The notes below the pieces were generated by a model. The model worked only from the letters and a program-made list of their open reading frames with translations. It made no database searches and had not been told where the DNA came from. A program made the position numbers and the translations under genes. Below, piece by piece: positions 5,592 to 21,655 of a stretch of 32,977 bases of DNA; the stretch's first letter is position 1, and every line of letters starts with the position of its first letter. The DNA comes from Vulcanisaeta sp. AZ3 (GTDB lineage: Archaea > Thermoproteota > Thermoprotei > Thermoproteales > Thermocladiaceae): assembly GCA_000960865.2 (NCBI GenBank), contig JZWU02000016.1:1-32977 (forward strand), in the 5' to 3' direction.

Positions 5592-5929
5592 TTACACACA
5601 ACCTGTTGGTTTTGGTGCCCCCGCCACCTTACACGCCCCAAGAGCTGGCCCACTCGGGAATAACTCATATATCCCCTCAAGCGTCTCTTTAGTCTCCTTT
5701 AGGAGCATCCTTACTGGTGGGCATGATCCATAAGTCTCCCAGTAATCTCTCAAGTACTTCACGACCTTCCAATGCCTCTCTGTCATTTGTTGAACTCCCT
5801 CGAGATTCTTAGCCATCCACTCAGCAATACTCTCATCCCAAACCTCGGTGTTCTGAAGGAAGCAATCCTCATCCAAAATGATCTTTTTCCATTAACCTCA
5901 TACTCACCTGGGCAAGTTATCGTAGGCAT
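5592..5929 (-). CDS. dsrC: DsrC sulfur-carrier protein (apparent 1-nt frameshift at 5884-5888)
   Basis: C-terminus FPSGPALGACKVAGAPKPTGCV has both conserved Cys. The N-terminus MPTITCPGEYEVNGK starts at ATG 5929 (GGTGA SD) in another frame; one extra A joins them as GKKIILDEDCF. Confidence 0.9.
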
Positions 5930-5973
5930 TCTATCACCGATTATGCATCGTCATTGTTTACTAAAAAGAGTTA

Positions 5974-5992
5974 TTACACATTGTACGTAGAA
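5974..5992 (-). promoter_or_regulatory. Palindromic operator upstream of dsrC
   Basis: Minus strand reads TTCTACGT-ACA-ATGTGTAA, then TAA CTC TTTTTAGT (BRE/TATA). Same motif at three other promoters. Confidence 0.75.
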
Positions 5993-6175
5993 ATTAATGC
6001 GGTATATGCTTCCTTAATAATAACAGATGTGTTACTCTTACGTAATGCGTTTACTTATTACTCTCTCAGTATTCTAGACCTAAGGATTACGTAGAGAGAA
6101 TTACTAAGTCCTTCCCATGACTTAGTCTATTATTAATTCTAGGGTAATTCAAGACTACTTAGCAGTATTGTCAGT

Positions 6176-6628
6176 TTAAACGATCCTCACGGCATCCACT
6201 GGACCGAACCTCTCCATAAGCCATTTAACGTAACCCTCTACATACCTACTCATAACAATCTGCGCAATCTTAGCCCAGTCATACATGGCCCAATGCGGTT
6301 CAAAATTTAACTTCAAAGCCAAGGCCCCCTCTACCCGATCCTCTAAACACCTCAAGGGATAAAGAGAAAACACTACTCTCGACCTCATGCCATTCCACGG
6401 CACATCCCTCAACTCCACCGCAGCGGACGTCTCATCCTCCACGGTTTCGCAATTTGCCCTTAAGCTAATCCTAGTCCTAAGATCTATAAATCCCAAACGG
6501 TAAATCTCTCCATCAAAACGAGAAATAACATAAAAATCAACATCCTCTAGGTAAAAAGTCTGAAGACCCTTCTCCTGTAAAATTAAGAAACCTTGAAGTT
6601 CAGCAGATTTTATTTTAAGAGGTTTCAC
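6176..6628 (-). CDS. Hypothetical protein between dsrB and dsrC (positional equivalent of Pyrobaculum 'dsrG')
   Basis: 150 aa, GTG start with strong SD (GGAGGGGG), 15 nt after the dsrB stop. The dsrG label is from recalled gene order only. Confidence 0.7.
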   Translation of the reverse strand: MKPLKIKSAELQGFLILQEKGLQTFYLEDVDFYVISRFDGEIYRLGFIDLRTRISLRANCETVEDETSAAVELRDVPWNGMRSRVVFSLYPLRCLEDRVEGALALKLNFEPHWAMYDWAKIAQIVMSRYVEGYVKWLMERFGPVDAVRIV

Positions 6629-6643
6629 GAAATTCCCCCTCCT

Positions 6644-7792
6644 TTAAATCCCCTCCCTAAACCTACGCCACGCCTCATACCTCTGTCTAAAGTACATAAA
6701 CGTCCTAACATTATCAGGTATTCTCTGATAAACGGCATGGACCTTCTCAAGACCCACCAAACCCACAAACCTCTGCCAACCAATCCTATCTATAAACTCT
6801 GCAATCCTCTCTCCCGGCTGGGCATGCTCCCTCCACGCATCAATCACACGCCTCACCACAACCACAATCTCCTCATACCTAGGCGGAATTGCCGGAAGCC
6901 AAGGTATAAGCACCCTACCTAGCCTCGGTCCTCTTCCCGTATTAGATATCTTACCGCCAACCAGTATGGCCACTCCCACATTCTCAGGATCATAATCAAA
7001 TGCATCACAGTTCTCCTTACAACGTGCACAATTAATACACTTCTCTGGTATCAATGTTAACTTGACCTTGTCTCCCTCCCTTCTCATTGAGAGAGCTCCT
7101 GTCGGGCAGACCTGCACTAAAAATACTTGCGACTCTGGGATCTTCTCAAGAGCCTTAGGCGGTGGAAGGCAATAACTCAAAGCCTCCTCTCTAATCTTTG
7201 GTGGGGCGCCCCATTGACCCACAATAGCTATGTCCATAGCAGTGCCCCCAGCGCACATGGCTGGGCATCCAGACACGAAGATCCTAAGCTTCGCCGGTAG
7301 TTTCTCCTCTCCGGTGAAGTAGGGCTTAAGGGCGTCTCCTAACGCTTTAGTGACTGATGGAGAGTCCACGACACTAGTGGTACAGGTTAAGTAAGCAGTG
7401 CAACTGTTAATACCCCACATGGCAGGTCCCCAGCCGCCCACTGGGAAGCCCATGTTCTCTGTCTCCTCCTTTATCTTAAGTGCCTTGTCCAAGGAGTCTG
7501 TTAAGAACTCTAGGTTACCAGCCATAGTCACTCGCAATGCCCCTACACCTAACTTATCCGCAATATCTGCAAACTTCTCTAGCGTGTCTGCACTGAGACG
7601 GGCGTTAGGCGGCATAGCCGCCTTAACCGTAAATACTCTCTCACCCGTCTCACTTATGTGCTCTATGATGCCGTTGCCGTGGAACTTCCTATCCACCCAC
7701 TTGCCATAATTCCTCCTTATTATATCTGGCAAAAACTTATCCAGATCGACAGGGAAGACCTTTCGTAATCTTGCAGCCTTGGGATCTGCCAT
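6644..7792 (-). CDS. dsrB: Dissimilatory sulfite reductase beta subunit
   Basis: RRNYGKW, GFPVGG, siroheme-[4Fe-4S] motif CTAYLTC...SGCPAMC, ferredoxin VCPTGA...CINCARC, GERIAEFIDRIGW. Confidence 0.95.
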   Translation of the reverse strand: MADPKAARLRKVFPVDLDKFLPDIIRRNYGKWVDRKFHGNGIIEHISETGERVFTVKAAMPPNARLSADTLEKFADIADKLGVGALRVTMAGNLEFLTDSLDKALKIKEETENMGFPVGGWGPAMWGINSCTAYLTCTTSVVDSPSVTKALGDALKPYFTGEEKLPAKLRIFVSGCPAMCAGGTAMDIAIVGQWGAPPKIREEALSYCLPPPKALEKIPESQVFLVQVCPTGALSMRREGDKVKLTLIPEKCINCARCKENCDAFDYDPENVGVAILVGGKISNTGRGPRLGRVLIPWLPAIPPRYEEIVVVVRRVIDAWREHAQPGERIAEFIDRIGWQRFVGLVGLEKVHAVYQRIPDNVRTFMYFRQRYEAWRRFREGI

Positions 7793-9015
7793 TATGCCTC
7801 ACCCTTAAGCTCCTTTACAAAATTTAGATACTCCTCCCTCTCCTCCTTACTTAACACGGCGTAGGGTACCTCGTCGCCTATCCTTGCCATCTCTGGCATT
7901 CCCTCAAGCTTTATGTCGGCCTTCTTTAGGAAATTCTCAATACCCGTAATCATAATGTAATCACCCAATCTGCACTTCGGCATAGCCTCGTTGTTCCACG
8001 GCTCGATGGCCTTAAACACGAGATCTATTGCCTTCGGTATATCATTCGGTCCTAGATAACCTATAAAATTACCAAGCTTTGGCCCAAAACGCCCTTTTAC
8101 CCCACCACCCATCACCACAGCAACTTTTATCCTCTTGCCCGGCTTTATTGCGGGGAAGGCTCTCTTAATGCACTCCATTGACTTTTTACATTTATCTCCA
8201 TCTATCCTCAGTTCTTTTCCATCCCAGCTAATTGCCCCACTAGGACACCTAGCAGCTAACTCCTTAGGATCAACCTCACCAGCCTCAATCTTCTTCTTCA
8301 AAAGCTCTTGATCAACCTCTGGAGCACCCTCCCAAACACCTATGAACCCCACATCCGCCCTATTAGCCCTTGCACAATCCATGGGGCAACCGGAGAATTT
8401 AATCTTAAACTTATACGGGAAGCCAGGAGTAGCTATAGCATCATTAACCCTCTTATCCTTATGAAACTCTGCATACCACTTTAACGTATCAAACAATGCA
8501 TATTCACAGAGGGCAGGCCCTACGCAAGCATTAAGCGCCCTTATTGCGTCACCGCTACCGCCCACATCTGTTCCAATAGCGCGTAGTGCATCTACCATTT
8601 CCTCTGCCTTATCCTTGGTTAAGTTAATAACAAAAGCACCTGTCTGACCAACTATCTCAATAAGCCCTACACCGAGCTCTTTAGATATCTTAGTAATTTG
8701 TCTAATAAAGTCTGTCTTCCAGAACTTACCTGGCGTATGGAACACACGGAAATGAGTCTCCTCACCACCATTAGGCACCCAATCCCTAGCCCACCTAGAT
8801 AAAACGCCCGTGTTCACATACTTAACAGTCACGGTGCCAGGACCCCACGGAGACTTCCTCGCCACAAGCCCCACACCATATACATGAAGAGGATAACGAG
8901 TTTTCCTAAGCTCCCTCACGTGGCTAGGCCAAGGCCCCTTCTCTAACTCCTTAAGCATATCCTCAGCCTTCTTCAATAATTCATCAGGCGGCGGTAAACC
9001 TGGAGGTGCTGACAT
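7792..9015 (-). CDS. dsrA: Dissimilatory sulfite reductase alpha subunit
   Basis: LKELEKGPWPSHV, DVGGSG, CVGPALCEYA, FPYKFKIKFSGCPMDC; stop overlaps the dsrB start. Confidence 0.95.
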   Translation of the reverse strand: MSAPPGLPPPDELLKKAEDMLKELEKGPWPSHVRELRKTRYPLHVYGVGLVARKSPWGPGTVTVKYVNTGVLSRWARDWVPNGGEETHFRVFHTPGKFWKTDFIRQITKISKELGVGLIEIVGQTGAFVINLTKDKAEEMVDALRAIGTDVGGSGDAIRALNACVGPALCEYALFDTLKWYAEFHKDKRVNDAIATPGFPYKFKIKFSGCPMDCARANRADVGFIGVWEGAPEVDQELLKKKIEAGEVDPKELAARCPSGAISWDGKELRIDGDKCKKSMECIKRAFPAIKPGKRIKVAVVMGGGVKGRFGPKLGNFIGYLGPNDIPKAIDLVFKAIEPWNNEAMPKCRLGDYIMITGIENFLKKADIKLEGMPEMARIGDEVPYAVLSKEEREEYLNFVKELKGEA

Positions 9016-9332
9016 ACGAAGCTCCTAATGCCTCATTTAATAAGTACTTTATTACCCAAGGTATTGATAATAAGAAATCTTAATAAATGATGGAGGAATC
9101 CTCAAAGCTATTTAGAGGCCGTTACGTTAAGCAGCAGTATAGACTCAAGGCCGCAGAATCCACATGTATTAAGGCGCGTCTACCTTACGCACCTTATTTT
9201 TAGGTTTAACGTTTCATAACGCTTCGTGCTAACGAGAGACAGAGGTTATTGCTGGATGCGGAATAATTAGATTCGATTACCCTTATTCATAACATTCACA
9301 TTATTTGAGTTCTACTCAATATCCTTTTAACA

Positions 9333-9773
9333 TTATTTCATATTGAGTTCTCTAACTCTCCTACCTAGTACCTTCATAATTGTTAGGAATATGTATAGGC
9401 CATTAATTACATCACTATCCCTACTTAACTTAATCACATCCGCAAGACTTGCGTTCTTAGCCTTAACCTTTAATATAGCCTTATCTATCTCCACATCATT
9501 CATGGTCTCGCCGATTACCTTCATTAATGAACTATTAACAACTCCATCTATCAGAGGTGCTAACTCCCTAATCATCAATGCTATGCGATCGACCATATCA
9601 TCAGTTATTACGCTAGATACATTCTTAATAGTCATAAGTAAGTCAATGGCAGTATCAAAAGCCCCGGACTGATAAAGTAGCAATGACTTATTAATCATAT
9701 CTATCATCGCTTCATCCTTATTTACACCTTCAACTATCTTCTCAACCCTCTTGGAAGGTATTTCGATGCTCAT
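9333..9773 (-). CDS. DUF1641-like helical protein, coupled to sqr
   Basis: C-terminal 'SLADVIKLSRDSDVINGLYIFLTIMKVLGR' fits the DUF1641 pattern; ATGA overlap with the sqr stop. Confidence 0.7.
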   Translation of the reverse strand: MSIEIPSKRVEKIVEGVNKDEAMIDMINKSLLLYQSGAFDTAIDLLMTIKNVSSVITDDMVDRIALMIRELAPLIDGVVNSSLMKVIGETMNDVEIDKAILKVKAKNASLADVIKLSRDSDVINGLYIFLTIMKVLGRRVRELNMK

Positions 9774-10956
9774 ATCAATCCCCTCATGCTAATTGGTAAC
9801 GAAAAGTAAAATGCCCTAATGAACCACCAACCAAACCTAGTGGTTATAAATGGCTGTTCATTAACCTTATAATCCCACCAAGGCAACCAAGCTCTACCTC
9901 TCCCGTGTTGTGTATATAAGTCGGTGATTGCAGGACAAATGGTCTCACCTCTATATATTTTATGCGAACCTACACCAGTTATGTCACTGACTATGTTATC
10001 CACAACAACATCAGATTGATAATGAGCCACTGCTGCAGCCTTAGCTGTCTCTATTGCTGCTGCATCGCCAATTACATAAACATTATCATAACTAGTCTTA
10101 CCCTTACGGTACTGTAACGTATATCTATCACAAGGTACAAAGCCATAGTCATCGCCAATTCCCGAATCCTTCATTGCCTTGGCACCTCTGTGCGGCGGTA
10201 TTGTTATTAATAAGTCGTACTTAATCTTGCTTCCATCCTCACTAACTACAACCTTTTCCTCCGGATTTATTTCAGAAGTCATGAAGAAGAATTCATACTT
10301 AATACCACGCTCCTCAAACAACTGCTTAGTTAATTCATTAATAGCGGGTTGTGCATGGAATTTATCAGTTGGATATATTAATATCATGTCAACATTATCA
10401 CGCACGCCTCTCTCCCTAAGGAAGTCATCAAGCATAAGCATAAACTTAAGTGGCGCACCTGGACACTTTATCGGAGGCTCTATAAACAACTCCACAATAG
10501 TACCCTTACTAAAACCCTGAAATACATTCCTAAGCTCTAGAGCACCCTCAAGTGTATAATACGTATGGTAATCCCTCAATAATCCAGGCACCTCCTCTGG
10601 CGCGTAATCGGCACCTGTTGCTATCACTAAATAATCATACGTGTATTTTTGCCATCTGCAAAGGTTAAGGTCCTATTTTCAAGGTCCACATTAGTTACTT
10701 CACCAGATGTTCCAAATATCGGCTTGATCCTAGAGTCTAGGATCTCGGTCTTAGGGCCCACCGCATACTCCTCACTCATAGCTCCAAATGGTATAAGAGT
10801 AAACATCGCCTGAACCTGATATTTCTCGTTCTTATCAAAAAGAAGTATTTCCACATCACCCTTTGCAATTTCCCACTTCAATTTTTTCGCTAATTTATTA
10901 GCGACAACGACGCCTGAGAAGTTACCACCGAGTACTACTATCCTCTTCATACTCAT
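9770..10956 (-). CDS. sqr: Sulfide:quinone oxidoreductase-family flavoprotein (apparent 1-nt frameshift at 10646-10650)
   Basis: Track ORFs 10627..11103 and 9770..10627 join with one extra A to give ADGKKYTYDYLVIATG. Motifs: KRIVVLGGNFSG, PIKCPGAP, YDLLITIPPH, VYVIGDA, GETICP. Start at 10956 or 10950. Confidence 0.85.
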
Positions 10957-10987
10957 GAAATGCCTAAGATTCATTAAATATAGCTTA

Positions 10988-11006
10988 TTCCACATTAAAT
11001 GTGGAA
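10988..11006 (-). promoter_or_regulatory. Palindromic operator upstream of sqr
   Basis: Perfect inverted repeat TTCCACAT-TTA-ATGTGGAA (minus strand), then TAA GCT ATATTTAA. Confidence 0.75.
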
Positions 11007-11470
11007 CACTAAAAGGGGTATCTAACCTCAATTTTTCACTATAATTCCATTTGTTGGTGCATATGATTGACAAAAGACTTAAAAATTTACTTATAATATT
11101 CATAATTTTTGTGCAGAATAACTTTATGTATTTTAATAATTTCTAATCTAAATACCCTGAGGAATTGCGTACAGATAGATGAGCAATACTTAAAAGAAGC
11201 AGCAAGTACTAATGAGGGGTCAAGAGTGATTATTTAAGGCTAATTTAAAGTATGGACATTTATAAAGAGTGAAACATGCTTCCGTGAACATAAGCAGCAA
11301 GTTCATGAGTCTTTTGATAACTTAATATCCTTTCCTGCAACTGCTCAGCGGAGTGAGTTTACTTGTGATAACAAAACTAACATATAATGATGCAAAAGAC
11401 GCCGAAGATCTCAGTTGCATGTCTTAGCAATCTCCAGTGGCTCTTTACTTAACTAGGCGTGTTAGATTAC

Positions 11471-11489
11471 TTTTACGTATTATGTGAAA
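11471..11489 (+). promoter_or_regulatory. Palindromic operator upstream of dsrMK
   Basis: TTTTACGT-ATT-ATGTGAAA, then TAA CCC TTATTATC. Confidence 0.75.
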
Positions 11490-11532
11490 TAACCCTTATT
11501 ATCACATGTACATATGGCGATTAGGATTAACT

Positions 11533-12318
11533 ATGAATTATGCATACCTCGTGGTCTTCGGCTACGTACCCTATGCCGTGATGTTTATATTCCTAGCTGG
11601 CATAGTGTATAGGATTGTTAGGTGGTTAATGCCGAAGGGACTTACGGGGCTCTATAACGTAAATACTACAGTTGGTGACGATACTTATGGGAAGATAACG
11701 GTGGAGATCCTCAAGAGGATATTTCTCTTTTATACATTGCCAGGCACGGACAATACATTATTCGTAGGCTCATTACTATTCCATTGGGGTATATGGATCG
11801 CCCTAATTGGGCATTTAGGTCTTGTGATTCCATCATCATGGCTCCACATAACGACTCAGGAACATTACCTAATAGCGCATGTGGTGGGTGGTTTAGGGGG
11901 TTCTATGGCGTTGGTTGGGATGTTAATATTATTGGCTAGGAGGTTCGTTACGAGGGAGGTTAAGGTCATGAGTCGTAGCGTTAGGATACCCATGAGGATG
12001 TTTAGCTTTCTCGATGATTACTTCGCAGACACACTTCTCCTATTAATAATAATCCTTGGCTTATTACAAACATTGTGGATACAACCCAACTTTGAAGCGA
12101 CTGTATCGCCTTGGATATGGTCATTAGCCAGCTTTGCTCCAAAGGTATCCTATATCATGGCTGCACCCCTCATTACACAGGTCCACATTATATTAGCTAT
12201 GATATTCATAACTTACTTCCCATGGAGTAAGATGATGCATCCATTCTCATTCATATACATATCACCAACAATCGCAAGACCATCAATAAGAATAAGGGTG
12301 AGGTCAATATCGAGGTGA
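11533..12318 (+). CDS. dsrM: DsrM, NarI-like membrane cytochrome b
   Basis: FHWGIWIALIGH, QVHIILAMIFITYFPWSKMMHPF heme-b His pattern; overlaps dsrK. ATG 11533 is preferred over 11506 from promoter position. Confidence 0.85.
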   Translation: MNYAYLVVFGYVPYAVMFIFLAGIVYRIVRWLMPKGLTGLYNVNTTVGDDTYGKITVEILKRIFLFYTLPGTDNTLFVGSLLFHWGIWIALIGHLGLVIPSSWLHITTQEHYLIAHVVGGLGGSMALVGMLILLARRFVTREVKVMSRSVRIPMRMFSFLDDYFADTLLLLIIILGLLQTLWIQPNFEATVSPWIWSLASFAPKVSYIMAAPLITQVHIILAMIFITYFPWSKMMHPFSFIYISPTIARPSIRIRVRSISR

Positions 12319-13724
12319 TGAGCATGTCCCATAAACTACCTGAGTTTAAGTACGGTGATACCTCAAACATAAGGCCTCACAAGGCTGATGCTAAGTTACT
12401 CGCGAATCTAAATAATAGGATTGGTCTCCGTGTCTCACCAGACGTAAATAAGGTTGCTTATTTCAAAAAGAGGCTTTTAGAGGAGTTCGATAGTAATAGG
12501 AATGTTAAGTTAGCAATAGAGACCTGCGTTCATTGCGGTGCATGTATTGCTGCATGCCCAACCTACATAACCACTGGCGACATCAGAAACTCACCAGTGG
12601 GGAGGGCTGAGTTAATAAGGGCTATCATAAAGAATGAGAAGCCTAGCGGTAAGATCTTTGGAAAGGCGGTAAATGCCATGAGGAATTTCGATGAGAATTA
12701 CCTAGAAATGCTCTATACCTACTACTGGCAGTGCCTATTATGCAGGCGTTGCGCTACAGTATGCCCCTTCGGTGTGGATCAAGCAACCCTCACTAGGACC
12801 GTTAGATCAATACTCTATGAATTAGGCATGGCATCCAGGTTTGTAACTATGACAATAGATAGTATGGAGTGCACGGGCAATAACATGGCATTAACACCAG
12901 CTGCCATAAGGAATATACTTGATTTTGTAATTAAGGAGATTAAGGAGGAGAAGGGCGTTGAGATTAAGGTCAAGGTTGACGAGGAGGCCTACGCTCTATT
13001 CTTACCATCGTCAGCCGACTTTTTTGTGAATATAGAAACGCTCAAGGGTCACCTACTCTTTATGCACGCCATAGGCATGGATTATACAATAAGTACAAAA
13101 GCCACAGAGGTGGCTAACTTCGGTCTCTTCCTAGACCCAAGACACCTGAGGTACATAGGTGATATTTACGTTAATACCGCCAGGGAGCTTAATGTTAAGT
13201 TAGTTGTATTCGGTGAATGCGGGCATGGGTGGCATGTATTTAAGAATTACGTGATTCCAAGACTGAGGAAATACGGAATAGAGGGAATGCACATATTCCA
13301 CCTAGTCGTTGACGCCATTAAGAAGGACATGATAAAACTAAACCCAGAGGCTAATGGTGACATTGTCTACATATACCAGGACCCTGACTACTACGCCAGA
13401 GGTGGTGATCTCACTGAGGAACCCAGATTCATAATGAATCATGTGGTTAAGAAATGGATTGATCCAGAGTATAGTAGGGCGAAGACTTGGTGTTGCGGCG
13501 GTCAGGGGGGTATGTTAGCAGATGAGTTGTTGCCATTGGCAATACAATATGCGAGGCTTTGGTACGAGGATGCCATAAATCATGGAGCTCAGTGGGTTGT
13601 TAGACCCTGCTCTATATGCAAGGCTCAGTTAAGCCATGTGGTTCCTCATTTAAATAAGATGTATGGTAAGAGCATTAAGTATTCGGGGCTTATGGACCTC
13701 GTATATAGGGCCCTAGTCATTTAA
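12315..13724 (+). CDS. dsrK: DsrK, HdrD-like Fe-S protein
   Basis: CVHCGACIAACP, CLLCRRCATVCPFGVD, GNN, ANFGLF, GECGHGW, CCGG, CSIC. Confidence 0.9.
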   Translation: MMSMSHKLPEFKYGDTSNIRPHKADAKLLANLNNRIGLRVSPDVNKVAYFKKRLLEEFDSNRNVKLAIETCVHCGACIAACPTYITTGDIRNSPVGRAELIRAIIKNEKPSGKIFGKAVNAMRNFDENYLEMLYTYYWQCLLCRRCATVCPFGVDQATLTRTVRSILYELGMASRFVTMTIDSMECTGNNMALTPAAIRNILDFVIKEIKEEKGVEIKVKVDEEAYALFLPSSADFFVNIETLKGHLLFMHAIGMDYTISTKATEVANFGLFLDPRHLRYIGDIYVNTARELNVKLVVFGECGHGWHVFKNYVIPRLRKYGIEGMHIFHLVVDAIKKDMIKLNPEANGDIVYIYQDPDYYARGGDLTEEPRFIMNHVVKKWIDPEYSRAKTWCCGGQGGMLADELLPLAIQYARLWYEDAINHGAQWVVRPCSICKAQLSHVVPHLNKMYGKSIKYSGLMDLVYRALVI

Positions 13725-13823
13725 ATAATTACCTAATCATTCAAATAATTATATGATATAAGTATTTCATTTAAATTATGAAATGCACTAGGCATCTAAT
13801 GCACCAATCAATCGCCTTTTATA

Positions 13824-14630
13824 GTGTTGAATAACATCATTTTATCTGTGTCAGTAACTAAGGGTTTAGTAAATGCGTGCTTAATACCTGAAAAGTTAAG
13901 GACGGAACTTAGAGAGGCATTGCATGTGGAGTTTGATGAAACTATAAACGAAATGTTGGCTTATATAATAGTCAAAGGACCTACAACACTTTATAGGGTA
14001 TCTCGAGACACACCCTATAGTATCTCGACAGTTTATAAGAAGGCAAGAAGGATGGTTAAGGATTACTTAATAAGAGTTATTAATAATGGAGGTGATAGAT
14101 GTATTTATGAGGTAACAGTTAAGGGTCTACTTACTTGCCTTGCTCACGGCTGTGTCGATGATGGGTTATTATTGAGTAAGCTTTGCCGTAAATGGAGAAT
14201 GGGTAATTATTGTTGTCAAAGGGTACACACGCTTATTAGCGTCCTTCCCGTTCTATTTAAAATTAACCCGGATATAAAAATGATAATTGAGGAGCCAGAG
14301 GCTCTCATGATGTGCATGCTCAATAACTTAAATGAATTAAGGGGTTTGCTCAATACGGATTTACTTGATGAGTTAACAAGGTCAATCACACATTATCTAG
14401 TTAATAGGTTATCTCTTAATGTTTCAGTAATTATAAAGCCTTCATTATTAATTAGCAATGAAAAATTTGCAATTAACCTCAATCCTGATGGTCATGTCTA
14501 TATCTACACGTGTATGTTATGTAATAAGCATTGTACCGCTACATACTTACCAGCAGAGGATCATTTAATGAAAGAACAATGTATACTTATCCCTAAGATT
14601 GAGAAATTAATGAATATTAATAGCATCTAA
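13824..14630 (+). CDS. Putative winged-helix transcription regulator with Cys-rich body (start uncertain)
   Basis: KGPTTLYRVSRDTPYSISTVYKKARRMVKDYLIRV...IYEVTVKGL is a wHTH pattern; 12 Cys including YCC and CMLCNKHC. Confidence 0.7.
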   Translation: MLNNIILSVSVTKGLVNACLIPEKLRTELREALHVEFDETINEMLAYIIVKGPTTLYRVSRDTPYSISTVYKKARRMVKDYLIRVINNGGDRCIYEVTVKGLLTCLAHGCVDDGLLLSKLCRKWRMGNYCCQRVHTLISVLPVLFKINPDIKMIIEEPEALMMCMLNNLNELRGLLNTDLLDELTRSITHYLVNRLSLNVSVIIKPSLLISNEKFAINLNPDGHVYIYTCMLCNKHCTATYLPAEDHLMKEQCILIPKIEKLMNINSI

Positions 14631-14657
14631 GAATATCTTAAGATTCACATTGAGGGG

Positions 14658-14676
14658 TTCTACGTGGTATGTGAAA
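14658..14676 (+). promoter_or_regulatory. Palindromic operator upstream of the methyltransferase-dsrN unit
   Basis: TTCTACGT-GGT-ATGTGAAA followed by TAA; 38 nt before the GTG start. Confidence 0.7.
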
Positions 14677-14713: not shown

Positions 14714-15376
14714 GTGATCATTATACCAATTTATGTGGTTGGTGCTGGTCCGTGGGATCCTGAGTTGATGACGCTCAAGGCAATTAGGATTCTAAAGAAT
14801 GCTGATGTCGTTTACTATGGTTCATTAGTTAATGAGGAGATTATAAATGCATATGCACCAAAGGCTCGGAAAATATACATGGGACACGTACGTGGTAATG
14901 ATCATAAAGTTTTCGTTAAGCAAGCCCTCGAGTTGGCAGGGAGGGGTTTGAATGTTGTTTTCCTTAAGAATGGTGATCCAGTAATATTTGGTAGGGGTAT
15001 TGAGATTTGTAAGGAGGCAATTAGTAATGGAATACCGTGTGAGGTGATTCCAGGGGTTAGTAGTTTTACGGCTGCGGCGGCTAGGTACTTAATCAGCTTA
15101 AGTGGTATTGTGGTTCTTATGGCGTATCCTAATATTAGGCTTGATGTTGAGGCTGATACGAAGGTAATATTCATGGGTACGGGCATAATTAAAGACCTAA
15201 TGAATATGCTTGATGAAGATGAGGAGGCAATAATAGTGAGTAGAGTTACGTACCCCGACGAGAGTATGGTTAAGTTAAGTAGGGATTATGACCCAAATGT
15301 GGATGTTAAGTCTCCATCGTTGGTGATAATTAGGCGTCGTGGTGTTGAGGATGAGAGTGCTGAGCACAGTACCTAG
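14714..15376 (+). CDS. Tetrapyrrole methyltransferase, probably uroporphyrinogen-III C-methyltransferase (SirA/CobA/CysG-A) for siroheme synthesis
   Basis: YVVGAGPWDPELMTLKA, LKNGDPVIFGRG, EVIPGVSSFTAAAA. Confidence 0.85.
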   Translation: MIIIPIYVVGAGPWDPELMTLKAIRILKNADVVYYGSLVNEEIINAYAPKARKIYMGHVRGNDHKVFVKQALELAGRGLNVVFLKNGDPVIFGRGIEICKEAISNGIPCEVIPGVSSFTAAAARYLISLSGIVVLMAYPNIRLDVEADTKVIFMGTGIIKDLMNMLDEDEEAIIVSRVTYPDESMVKLSRDYDPNVDVKSPSLVIIRRRGVEDESAEHST

Positions 15377-16724
15377 GGTTGTCGTGGCATCGTATAAGGG
15401 TAAGGTGGGTAAGACAACAGCGTCTTTGGCAATATCTATGGCATTAATTAAGGCTGGGTATAGGGTGTCTATGTTTAAGGTAGGTCCTGACTTCATAGAT
15501 CCCAGTTATCATGCAGCAATGATGAATAGGCCAAGCAGGAATTTAGATTATGTATTGATGGGCGATCAAGGAATACTTACGAGATTCCATAGGTACTCAA
15601 TTGGTTCAGACGTAGCGATTATTGAGGGTGTCTCTGGTCTTTATGATAGTGTTGATGGGGTTAGTGAGGTTGGTAGTACAGCTCAGGTGGCTAAGTTGTT
15701 AAAGGCTCCGGTAATTCTTGTGATTAATGGGGAGAGAATTAATAGGACCGTGAGGGCATTAGTTAGGGGGTTGAGGGTCTTTGATCCTGAGGTTAGGATT
15801 AGGGGTGTGGTGTTTACGAATGTTAATAAGAGGCAGGTTGATAAGCTGGTTAAGGCCGTTGAGGAGGAGGGTCTTGAAACCATTGGTTATATACTGAGGA
15901 GTGATGATATTGAGGAGCTAATGCAGTACAGGCATTTAGGTCTTGTACATGCTCAAGAAGTTGATAGGTCAAGGATAATCTCGGTAATTAATGAGGCGTC
16001 TATCTACATTGATGTTAATAAGGTACTGAGCATTGCTAAGGAAAGCGAGCCGGTAGAATTCGTACAGGATTACTCACGAAACACGGATATTAATTACCCT
16101 AAGCGAGTTAGGATTGGTATCGTTACTGGCAGAGTATTTACCTTCTATTACCCAGAGGTGATAGAAAGGGCGCAGGAGATTGGTGATGTTAGGTTCCTTG
16201 ATCCCGAGGTTGATCAAGACGTTGGTGATGTTGATTTGGTAGTGATTGGTGGTGGTTTTCCTGAGATTTATGGTCGATACCTAGAGAGGAACAGGTCGTT
16301 TAGGAGTAGTTTGAGGAGTTTTATAGACAGGGGTGGTTATGTATATGCTGAGTGTGGGGGTTTGATGTACCTCACGGATTCCATAGTTTATAATAATGAG
16401 GAGTACGAGATGGTGGGTGCCATAGATGCAATCACGATAATGCATAAGAGGCCTGTGTGGTATGGGTATGCCACGGCTAGGGTAATTAGGGATTCAATAA
16501 TAGGTGGTGCTGGTACGATAATTAAGGGCCATGAGTTTCATTACTCTACAATAGTGCTTAGGGGTAGGTATGATTTTGTGATTAGGTATGAGAGGGGTTT
16601 TGGTATTAATGGTTTTGATGGAATACTAATTAACAATGCCTACGCCCATTACCTTCACATACATCCAGATACATACGATATACTTAATAATTTCGTAGAG
16701 AACATCGTCAAAAACAAGTATTAG
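15351..16724 (+). CDS. dsrN: CbiA/CobB-family a,c-diamide synthase, in this context DsrN (siroheme amidase)
   Basis: GKTT, FKVGPDFIDPSYH, IEGVSGLYD, RHLGLV, FTFYY, GGGFPE, YAECGGLMYL, GHEFHYS. The dsrN name comes from cluster context. Confidence 0.85.
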   Translation: MRVLSTVPRVVVASYKGKVGKTTASLAISMALIKAGYRVSMFKVGPDFIDPSYHAAMMNRPSRNLDYVLMGDQGILTRFHRYSIGSDVAIIEGVSGLYDSVDGVSEVGSTAQVAKLLKAPVILVINGERINRTVRALVRGLRVFDPEVRIRGVVFTNVNKRQVDKLVKAVEEEGLETIGYILRSDDIEELMQYRHLGLVHAQEVDRSRIISVINEASIYIDVNKVLSIAKESEPVEFVQDYSRNTDINYPKRVRIGIVTGRVFTFYYPEVIERAQEIGDVRFLDPEVDQDVGDVDLVVIGGGFPEIYGRYLERNRSFRSSLRSFIDRGGYVYAECGGLMYLTDSIVYNNEEYEMVGAIDAITIMHKRPVWYGYATARVIRDSIIGGAGTIIKGHEFHYSTIVLRGRYDFVIRYERGFGINGFDGILINNAYAHYLHIHPDTYDILNNFVENIVKNKY

Positions 16725-21528: not shown

Positions 21529-21655
21529 TGGTGGGCCCGCCGGGATTTGAACCCGGGATCTCCCGCGCACTTAGGTTATTGTTGGCGCGGTGCCTTGTAA
21601 GGCTTTCACGGGGCTTTTAACCCCTGGGCATCCTACCAGGCTAGACTACGGGCCC
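21529..21655 (-). tRNA. tRNA-Val(TAC) with two introns (29/30: 21625-21604, 22 nt; 37/38: 21595-21568, 28 nt), CCA encoded
   Basis: Removing both introns gives a 77-nt cloverleaf: GGGCCCG...CCCGC CTTACAC GCGGG AGATC CCGGG TTCAAAT CCCGG CGGGCCC A CCA. The 37/38 intron has a BHB central helix CTTA/TAAG. Confidence 0.9.

Follow-up and report, generated by a model that had tools for sequence, protein, structure and literature searches.

The DNA analyzed here is a 32,977-nucleotide stretch (the window), which is the whole of contig C16 (JZWU02000016.1) of Vulcanisaeta sp. AZ3; the genome assembly comprises 1,510,793 bases in 55 contigs, has a G+C content of 41.8% and is 89.85% complete. The window holds a cluster of sulfur genes, among them dsrC, dsrAB, a sqr-like gene, dsrMK and a methyltransferase-dsrN pair, and four promoters of this cluster share a 19-bp dyad with the consensus TTnCACRT-N3-AYGTGnAA, the putative operator that is our subject. 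Site 1, in front of dsrC, occupies 5974..5992 on the minus strand (TTCTACGTACAATGTGTAA, read with the gene), and site 2, in front of sqr, occupies 10988..11006 on the same strand as a perfect palindrome (TTCCACATTTAATGTGGAA) followed by TAA-GCT-ATATTTAAT. On the plus strand, site 3 precedes dsrMK at 11471..11489 (TTTTACGTATTATGTGAAA, followed by TAA-CCC-TTATTATC), and site 4 precedes the methyltransferase-dsrN pair at 14658..14676 (TTCTACGTGGTATGTGAAA, followed by TAA). An initial annotation of this DNA had listed the same four 19-mers, each trailed by TAA, and on re-reading the window we found its sequences and coordinates exact and the TAA present behind all four. It had also drawn the consensus with ACGT in the left arm and ATGT in the right arm, an orientation that is not kept across orthologous promoters.

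The genes behind these sites are recognizable by their domains. The product of dsrC (5592..5929, minus strand) matches Pfam DsrC (6.6e-31). The sqr-like flavoprotein gene (9770-10950, minus strand; Pyr_redox_2) is accompanied by an open reading frame (ORF) of 146 amino acids (9333-9773), and its product is 71 to 80% identical to the intact 393-aa protein of the relative G008. On the plus strand, dsrM (11533-12318, with its start assigned by homology; Nitrate_red_gam) and dsrK (12315-13724; Fer4 and CCG domains) encode products that are 70% and 85% identical to those of G008. The tetrapyrrole methyltransferase gene (14714-15376, GTG start; TP_methylase, 2.8e-40) and the gene for a DsrN-like amidase (15339-16724; GATase_3 and CbiA) lie on the same strand. 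The minus-strand genes dsrA (7792-9015) and dsrB (6644-7792) and a 150-aa ORF (6176-6628) have no operator of their own. In the window, the frames of dsrC and sqr are broken at a T-run (5884-5888) and near 10645, respectively. In contigs of two public sequencing runs, X1 and X2, an extra T after each of positions 5883 and 10645 puts both genes back in frame, and the breaks therefore represent homopolymer errors or strain differences rather than dead genes. The sat gene on contig C2 (35940-37299) is likewise split into two ORFs. Together, the dsrC, sqr and sat splits suggest homopolymer assembly errors and not pseudogenes.

With start codons that are backed by orthologues (dsrC ATG 5929, sqr ATG 10950, dsrM ATG 11533 and methyltransferase GTG 14714), the palindromes end 37 to 45 nt before the gene; alternative in-frame ATGs would shorten this distance to 16 to 31 nt. 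Among the differences listed for run X1, the sole one within site 1 falls on the central spacer base, 5983, and the flanks of the site carry several substitutions and indels. The 464 bases between the sqr and dsrMK operators (11007-11470) contain no ORF of at least 60 aa. Relatives have an ORF of 171 to 177 aa in this gap, of which tblastn found no remnant in this genome, and no remnants of the relatives' 171/177-aa and 308-aa ORFs were found in the window.

The dyad is highly specific to these promoters. Searched on both strands of the genome, the consensus of the initial annotation matches perfectly at the four window sites and nowhere else. No match with a single mismatch exists genome-wide, and of the 11 strand-wise matches with two mismatches, 2 are sites 3 and 4 read on the opposite strand and 9 lie elsewhere. 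At up to two mismatches, the consensus yielded 8 strand-wise matches against 0.57 expected, a count that none of 100 shuffles reached, although the test is circular, the sites themselves having supplied the pattern. An independent test used a symmetrized weight matrix built from 21 unique sulfur-gene promoter sites, all of them from congeners and none from this genome. A weight-matrix scan had been proposed at the outset, and with this matrix the four window sites take genome ranks 1 to 4 (22.7, 22.5, 20.2 and 17.2 bits for sites 4, 3, 1 and 2), the fifth rank scoring 14.8 bits. The maxima of five mononucleotide shuffles of the genome range from 15.2 to 19.4 bits. Three of the sites score above all five; the sqr site is outscored by the maximum of three shuffles, and its case accordingly rests on position and conservation. 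Ranks 5 to 10 comprise five positions within ORFs and one between convergent gene ends, with none at a promoter. Within the window, the next-best score is 5.8 bits, in line with the earlier remark that the motif precedes no non-sulfur gene there. The uniqueness of the consensus and the top four ranks under the independent matrix rule out chance, and the 19-bp palindrome is very probably a real factor site that controls these genes.

A palindrome need not be a protein site at all, and the element might instead form a DNA or RNA hairpin, such as a terminator or processing signal, or be a dispersed repeat or a chance occurrence. It is indeed an inverted repeat, and site 4 starts only 28 nt past the stop codon of the upstream ORF. 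We nevertheless consider this explanation very improbable, as the genome holds only four copies, all adjoining sulfur genes, and the site is kept at orthologous promoters over four genera while its spacer and flanks vary. A hairpin in particular was rejected on the basis of its arms: perfect 8-bp arms occur in 1 of 25 unique sites, and the arms do not covary. Complementary arm pairs number 7 against 9.4 expected under independence at positions 3/17, 14 against 15.4 at positions 4/16, and 7 against 11.3 at positions 7/13. Each site precedes a TATA-like block at a fixed spacing and is therefore not part of the downstream transcript. At dyad positions 7/13, 16 of the 25 unique sites combine one CACGT half with one CACAT half, whereas 1 has CACGT and 6 have CACAT in both halves; the remaining 2 have another base at position 7. 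This preference for one CG per site does not extend to orientation, as either half may face the gene.

To assess conservation, we searched 40 related genomes for the pattern with at most one mismatch and used the reversed pattern as a control. Matches were found in 10 of the 12 other genomes of the genus (59 strand-wise, against 5 for the reversed control), in all 4 genomes of genus g2 and in 3 of 4 genomes of genus g4. Within the genus, each genome has its matches concentrated in a single region of some 20 kb, where the palindrome lies 25 to 45 nt before the starts of methyltransferase-dsrN, dsrC, sqr, a second sqr, dsrM, dsrA and a membrane-protein-aprB-aprA-sat operon. The orthologous methyltransferase-dsrN promoter carries the site 33 to 44 nt before the start in eight genomes. 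The site is likewise present at dsrC promoters in three genomes, at sqr promoters in two and at the second sqr copy in three, and dsrM promoters of three genomes have sites with two mismatches. In one complete genome, the six matched places are five such promoters and one position inside an ORF. Beyond the main cluster, the site precedes an operon of the order DsrE-TusA-FlpD-HdrA-like-HdrA-like-...-HdrC-like (18.1 and 16.4 bits), as well as a TauE/SafE-DUF1634 gene, a gene for a small ferredoxin and an FmdE-like gene; in this genome, a search for the DsrE-TusA-Hdr-like operon turned up no close orthologues, only homologues of 31 to 41% identity.

The regulon of dsrC, sqr, dsrMK and methyltransferase-dsrN first proposed from the window alone is thus borne out by the same palindrome, at the same distance from TATA, before orthologous operons in 10 of 12 congeners, and by its presence before dsr genes in three more genera. 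The further prediction of sites at sat, aprAB, qmo/hdr-like genes and dsrAB stands for the relatives, which have them, and fails for dsrAB and aprBA-sat of this genome, which do not. Three congeners (54 to 79% complete) have neither the motif nor a homologue of the candidate regulator introduced below; their lack of the motif is uninformative because the only DsrK found there is a DsrK-like paralogue of 44 to 52% identity.

The palindrome occupies a fixed place in its promoters. We aligned 27 unique promoters on the palindrome end and found T at +1 in 24, A at +2 in all 27 and A at +3 in 26. Positions +4 to +6 are variable, positions +7 to +15 form a T/A-rich block, and the start codons follow at about +37 to +46. 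In each window promoter, the TATA-like block begins 6 nt past the palindrome; the dsrC promoter (5957..5973, minus strand), for example, consists of a TAA (5973-5971) resembling the transcription factor B (TFB) recognition element (BRE), three variable bases and a T/A-rich, TATA-like run. Upstream regions throughout this genome are enriched in A at positions -5 and -4 of TATA-like heptamers (50% and 48%). The TAA is best read as the BRE core because its AA falls at these positions, and as part of the promoter rather than of the dyad because no mirror-image TAA is conserved on the distal side. Judged from sequence, the operator abuts the BRE-like TAA and lies upstream of TATA, both BRE and TATA being predicted elements.

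In three more genera of the family (g2, g3 and g4), dsrA and dsrB are unusual in being divergent, and the site lies between the two genes. There, a single dyad is bordered by TA or TAA on both sides, and TATA-like runs lie 6 nt from each of its ends. The intergenic stretches are only about 60 to 90 bases long (L047 9289-9354, L048 8658-8717, L049 3162-3208 and L052 4845-4937), and in L049 the dyad and its flanks make up a 47-bp perfect palindrome. Such a fixed one- or two-sided geometry is what a factor that touches TFB or the TATA-binding protein (TBP) would need.

A candidate for this factor is encoded within the cluster. Between dsrK and the methyltransferase gene lies an ORF of 268 aa (13824..14630, plus strand) whose product has a winged helix-turn-helix (HTH) at about residues 24 to 115, a helical middle and a cysteine-rich C-terminus. 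It matches no Pfam family at 0.001. Residues 116 to 268 have no Pfam match, and no C-terminal sugar-binding domain of the TrmB type was found in them; they carry a C-x2-C-x3-C...C pattern instead. Six cysteines are invariant in 14 homologues: C105 and C110 (C-x4-C) just past the wing, and C230, C233, C237 and C253 at the C-terminus. The family is small, with 46 representative relatives at an E value of at most 0.001 among 1.84 billion proteins; a word-based search returned 9 relatives, of which those with names are hypothetical proteins of Vulcanisaeta.

Structure prediction points to a DNA-binding fold at the N-terminus. The AlphaFold (AF2) model has a mean predicted local distance difference test score (pLDDT) of 69.9 and is confident over residues 20 to 195. 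The best rows of a Foldseek search are MarR/ArsR-type regulators at E values of about 1e-2. A VIA comparison of residues 24 to 115, independent of Foldseek, aligned 79 residues with RosR (6ez1; Z 9.4, root-mean-square deviation 2.6) and 76 with a MarR-DNA complex (5h3r; Z 9.4, root-mean-square deviation 2.7), and the 50 rows listed consist entirely of winged-helix domains, nearly every one from a DNA-binding regulator. In the model, the N-terminal domain is a winged helix-turn-helix fold. Among PDB sequences, a profile search detected HTH proteins only weakly (best E 0.0073), protein atlas scores of 0.85 to 0.87 serve as leads only, and a homodimer prediction scored 0.02 against a mark of 0.42, which is evidence neither for nor against a dimer.

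Genomic linkage ties this protein family to the operator. Homologues lie within about 3 kb of the operator in four genera. Eight genomes were found to have one at 0 to 3 kb, and in one of them 45 nt separate the start of the homologue gene from a site of 21.5 bits. The cluster of complete congeners holds a pair of paralogues, the first behind dsrK and the second ahead of the methyltransferase gene, where this genome has one. The homologues of family f1 share the recognition-helix pattern S-[ST]-x-[YF]-K-K-[AT], and the dsr-linked homologues of another family, f2, differ there. With the f1 matrix, no site of at least 9 bits was found in f2 dsr clusters of normal G+C content (L054-L056 and L058), and the comparison suggests that recognition helix and operator co-vary between f1 and f2. 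The regulator's own upstream region (13725-13823) has no site, with a best score of 1.8 bits, and the gene may be co-transcribed with dsrMK, which would create a feedback loop. A weak AT-rich dyad (TTTCATTTAAATTATGAAA, 13765-13783; 1.8 bits with the matrix) lies 5' of the regulator ORF and could be a degenerate site or chance.

Taken together, we read the 19-bp dyad as the operator of a lineage-specific factor, most likely a dimer of the 268-aa protein, that activates the sulfur genes, and we give this reading a probability of roughly 0.6. That the factor reading the operator belongs to the 268-aa protein family is itself probable. Four promoters would be under its control in this genome: dsrC, sqr (with the 146-aa ORF and perhaps dsrAB), dsrMK (with the regulator) and methyltransferase-dsrN. 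The start codon lies about 37 to 45 nt past the palindrome, which places the dyad center about 45 nt upstream of the expected, nearly leaderless transcription start. The dimer would sit on the dyad with one subunit per half-site. The promoter-proximal half-site directly abuts the BRE-like TAA, and the subunit bound there could help TFB and TBP to bind and so activate transcription. The conserved cysteines may sense redox state or a sulfur compound, whether through redox chemistry, an Fe-S cluster or sulfane sulfur.

The sign of control is less secure than the site itself. We lean somewhat toward activation over repression, since the operator keeps an invariant spacing on the upstream side of the BRE. 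The same kind of factor on the same operator might instead be a repressor that covers the BRE-like TAA and blocks TFB and TBP until a sulfur signal (persulfide, polysulfide or sulfite) acts on the cysteines and releases it, which would resemble the bacterial control of sqr by SqrR, BigR and CstR. The proximal half-site touches the TAA without a gap, and the T/A-rich TATA blocks of several promoters are good enough that an activator might be unnecessary. Moreover, sqr belongs to the regulon, the 268-aa protein has a conserved cysteine pair, and the weak Foldseek rows include the sulfide-responsive SqrR (6o8m, E 5.3e-2). However, the SqrR likeness extends to the common winged-helix fold only, and the invariant 6-nt TATA spacing, including that of the mirror-symmetric dsrA/dsrB promoters, exceeds what occlusion would need. 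According to two reports, known archaeal repressor sites mostly overlap TATA or lie downstream of it, while upstream sites activate (PMC4706686, PMC6737238); TK0271 of Thermococcus kodakarensis is one such activator that binds upstream of BRE/TATA (PMC6737238). We therefore regard repression as the distinctly less likely sign.

Several observations weigh against activation by the 268-aa protein. A footprint that reaches the TAA could equally occlude TFB, which would amount to repression. The C-terminal third of the model has a pLDDT below 50. The protein scores below the cut-off of the Pfam TrmB HTH family (PF01978; 12.1 against 25.6 bits, E 0.18), and for this reason we do not file it as a TrmB member; it is a distant relative at most. 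In favor of this factor, 9 of 15 members of the wider family match TrmB HTH at E values of at most 1 (best 4.7e-8). At that threshold, three of the 15 match MarR and one matches HTH_5, and the 268-aa protein itself matches neither. The linkage to the operator is guilt by association among related, non-independent genomes. Genus g5 has a homologue with an f1-like recognition helix beside sqr-dsrC-dsrN, and no site of at least 9 bits was found there (best 5.7). Conversely, f2 does contain one site of 19.5 bits (locus L057 of G025), which lies where a 495-aa ORF begins, some 2.6 kb upstream of dsrM. In this genome, the core catalytic genes would fall outside the regulon, except that transcription from the sqr promoter may run on into dsrAB. 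Finally, relatives hold a second cluster-linked candidate, a 224-aa ORF that weakly matches TrmB HTH (E 0.0088).

This last observation bears on a further alternative, in which the operator is real and bound by another factor, either an unlinked regulator or the relatives' 224-aa TrmB-like ORF next to dsrN, while the 268-aa protein plays some other role in the cluster. Neighborhood is all that ties the 268-aa protein to operator DNA, and the operator half-site resembles the half-site TATCAC given for TrmBL1 (PMC4706686). Yet the 224-aa ORF was not found by tblastn in this genome (at its 89.85% completeness), where four strong sites remain. The 268-aa family, in contrast, is present in the dsr cluster of every motif-bearing genus examined, and wherever the motif is kept, so is the recognition helix of this family. 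A different factor thus seems unlikely, and the 268-aa protein remains our preferred candidate.

The exceptional loci of g5 and f2 have features of their own. In g5 (G016), the region between the regulator homologue and sqr (L053, about 7310-7380) contains a 9-base inverted repeat (GGATCCACA / TGTGGATCC, 38 bases apart) whose arms flank two T/A-rich runs; its half-sites are operator-like and their arrangement is different. The f2 locus L057 (G025 797000-810000) is an island of low G+C content (0.45) with fragmented dsrK/dsrN pieces, dsrM, dsrAB, dsrC and sqr, and an f1-like lineage may have been its source. In L054, L056 and L058, several f2 dsr, sqr and tusA promoters show by eye a different element, TTCTCA ... 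(T)GTTAATAA, before the TATA run.

The catalytic genes of this genome that lack the operator also differ in their affiliation. No site was found in the dsrA promoter (9016-9332; best matrix score -1.3 bits) or in the aprB/membrane-protein promoter (contig C2, about 40419; best -0.3 bits). DsrA is 85% identical to that of an f2 genome (G038) and 44 to 46% identical to those of congeners, and AprA is 85% identical to that of another f2 genome (G029) and 54 to 55% identical to those of congeners. Overall, the dsrA-dsrB-150-aa block and aprA are 77 to 85% identical to these genomes of the other family, as opposed to 44 to 56% to congeners. The G+C content is 0.475 in the dsrA-dsrB-150-aa block and 0.484 in the aprBA block (C2 35600-40420, L059), compared with 0.40 to 0.43 nearby. 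The catalytic genes without an operator look as if they had been replaced by foreign or paralogous copies, which could reflect xenologous replacement or the sorting of old paralogues; the operator-bearing genes are of the genus's own type. Elsewhere in the window, a 124-base Rfam tRNA match on the minus strand (21532-21655), for which ARAGORN made no call, is probably an intron-containing tRNA.

These observations can be combined into a bolder and more tentative proposal, which we consider doubtful as a whole: that the 268-aa protein is the first member of a crenarchaeal family of master activators that sense sulfur or redox state and govern dissimilatory sulfate and sulfite reduction. Its cysteines would hold an Fe-S cluster or form a per- or polysulfide bridge, and the active dimer would contact TFB at the abutting BRE. 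One central dyad would fire two mirror-image promoters, as at the divergent dsrA/dsrB of three genera. Genes that came from another family, such as dsrAB and aprBA here, would escape the circuit, and regulon membership would track gene ancestry.

Dissimilatory sulfite and sulfate reduction is held to be among the oldest energy metabolisms, and we found no description of how any archaeon regulates the genes for it. The initial annotation knew of no regulator or motif described for crenarchaeal dsr genes; our literature search likewise found none, the main sulfate-reduction physiology paper of the genus and its supplements being outside its coverage. The word "regulator" does not occur in PMC10504309, where "promoter" occurs once, in a reference title, and both occurrences of "palindromic" in PMC3189178 concern CRISPR. 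The regulon is real and conserved, has a plausible cognate factor and is apparently undescribed. What emerges is a defined 19-bp operator, its precise promoter position and a specific protein, with conserved cysteines, as the candidate factor, which makes the question directly testable. The list of targets includes dsrC, dsrMK, dsrAB, sqr, the siroheme methyltransferase and amidase genes, aprBA-sat, the DsrE-TusA-Hdr-like operon and TauE. The mirror-symmetric dsrA/dsrB promoters would offer a clean model of one archaeal activator dimer that addresses TFB and TBP on both sides.

SurR of the Thermococcales is a winged-helix regulator of the sulfur response with the motif GTT-N3-AAC and an N-terminal CxxC switch, and the sign of its control depends on the position of its site relative to BRE/TATA. 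The candidate described here is similarly an archaeal winged-helix protein rich in cysteines, which in SurR serve as a sulfur switch. The two differ in motif (TTnCACRT-N3-AYGTGnAA here) and in targets, which are hydrogenase and sulfur-reductase genes for SurR and dsr, apr and sqr genes here. The 268-aa protein also has no CxxC in its first 100 residues, and no sequence relationship to SurR emerged from the Pfam, homologue or PDB-sequence searches. Bacterial SqrR and BigR (ArsR family) and CstR are persulfide-sensing repressors of sqr, of about 100 aa, that act at sigma-70 promoters through a winged-helix dimer with a reactive cysteine pair. They would share with the candidate the control of sqr and, in the case of SqrR, the weak structural match mentioned above; this likeness is one of common fold, and the operator position here suggests activation where they repress. 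SurR and the bacterial persulfide sensors are thus functional analogies only.

Ptr2 and TFB-RF1 are archaeal activators that bind upstream of BRE/TATA. Like these and TK0271, the candidate would have its site directly upstream of BRE/TATA, with presumed recruitment of TBP or TFB; unlike them, it belongs to another protein family and has another motif. We know of no case among these systems of a strict 6-nt spacing or of a single dyad between mirror-image promoters.

The nearest described system is that of TrmBL1/Tgr and the Thermococcales glycolytic motif (TGM), TATCAC-N5-GTGATA (PMC4706686). According to that report, a TrmBL1 site has an activating effect upstream of BRE/TATA and a repressing one downstream; the operator described here lies upstream of the BRE. 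Both systems would pair a winged-helix factor of the TrmB kind with a palindrome whose half-sites read T-A/T-T-C-A-C, and some sites here take the form TATCAC...GTGTAA. However, the core spacing is CAC-N7-GTG in all 25 unique sites here, compared with the CAC-N5-GTG of the published motif. The putative factor is crenarchaeal, has a cysteine-rich C-terminus in place of the TrmB sugar-binding domain, and would govern sulfur respiration rather than sugar metabolism.

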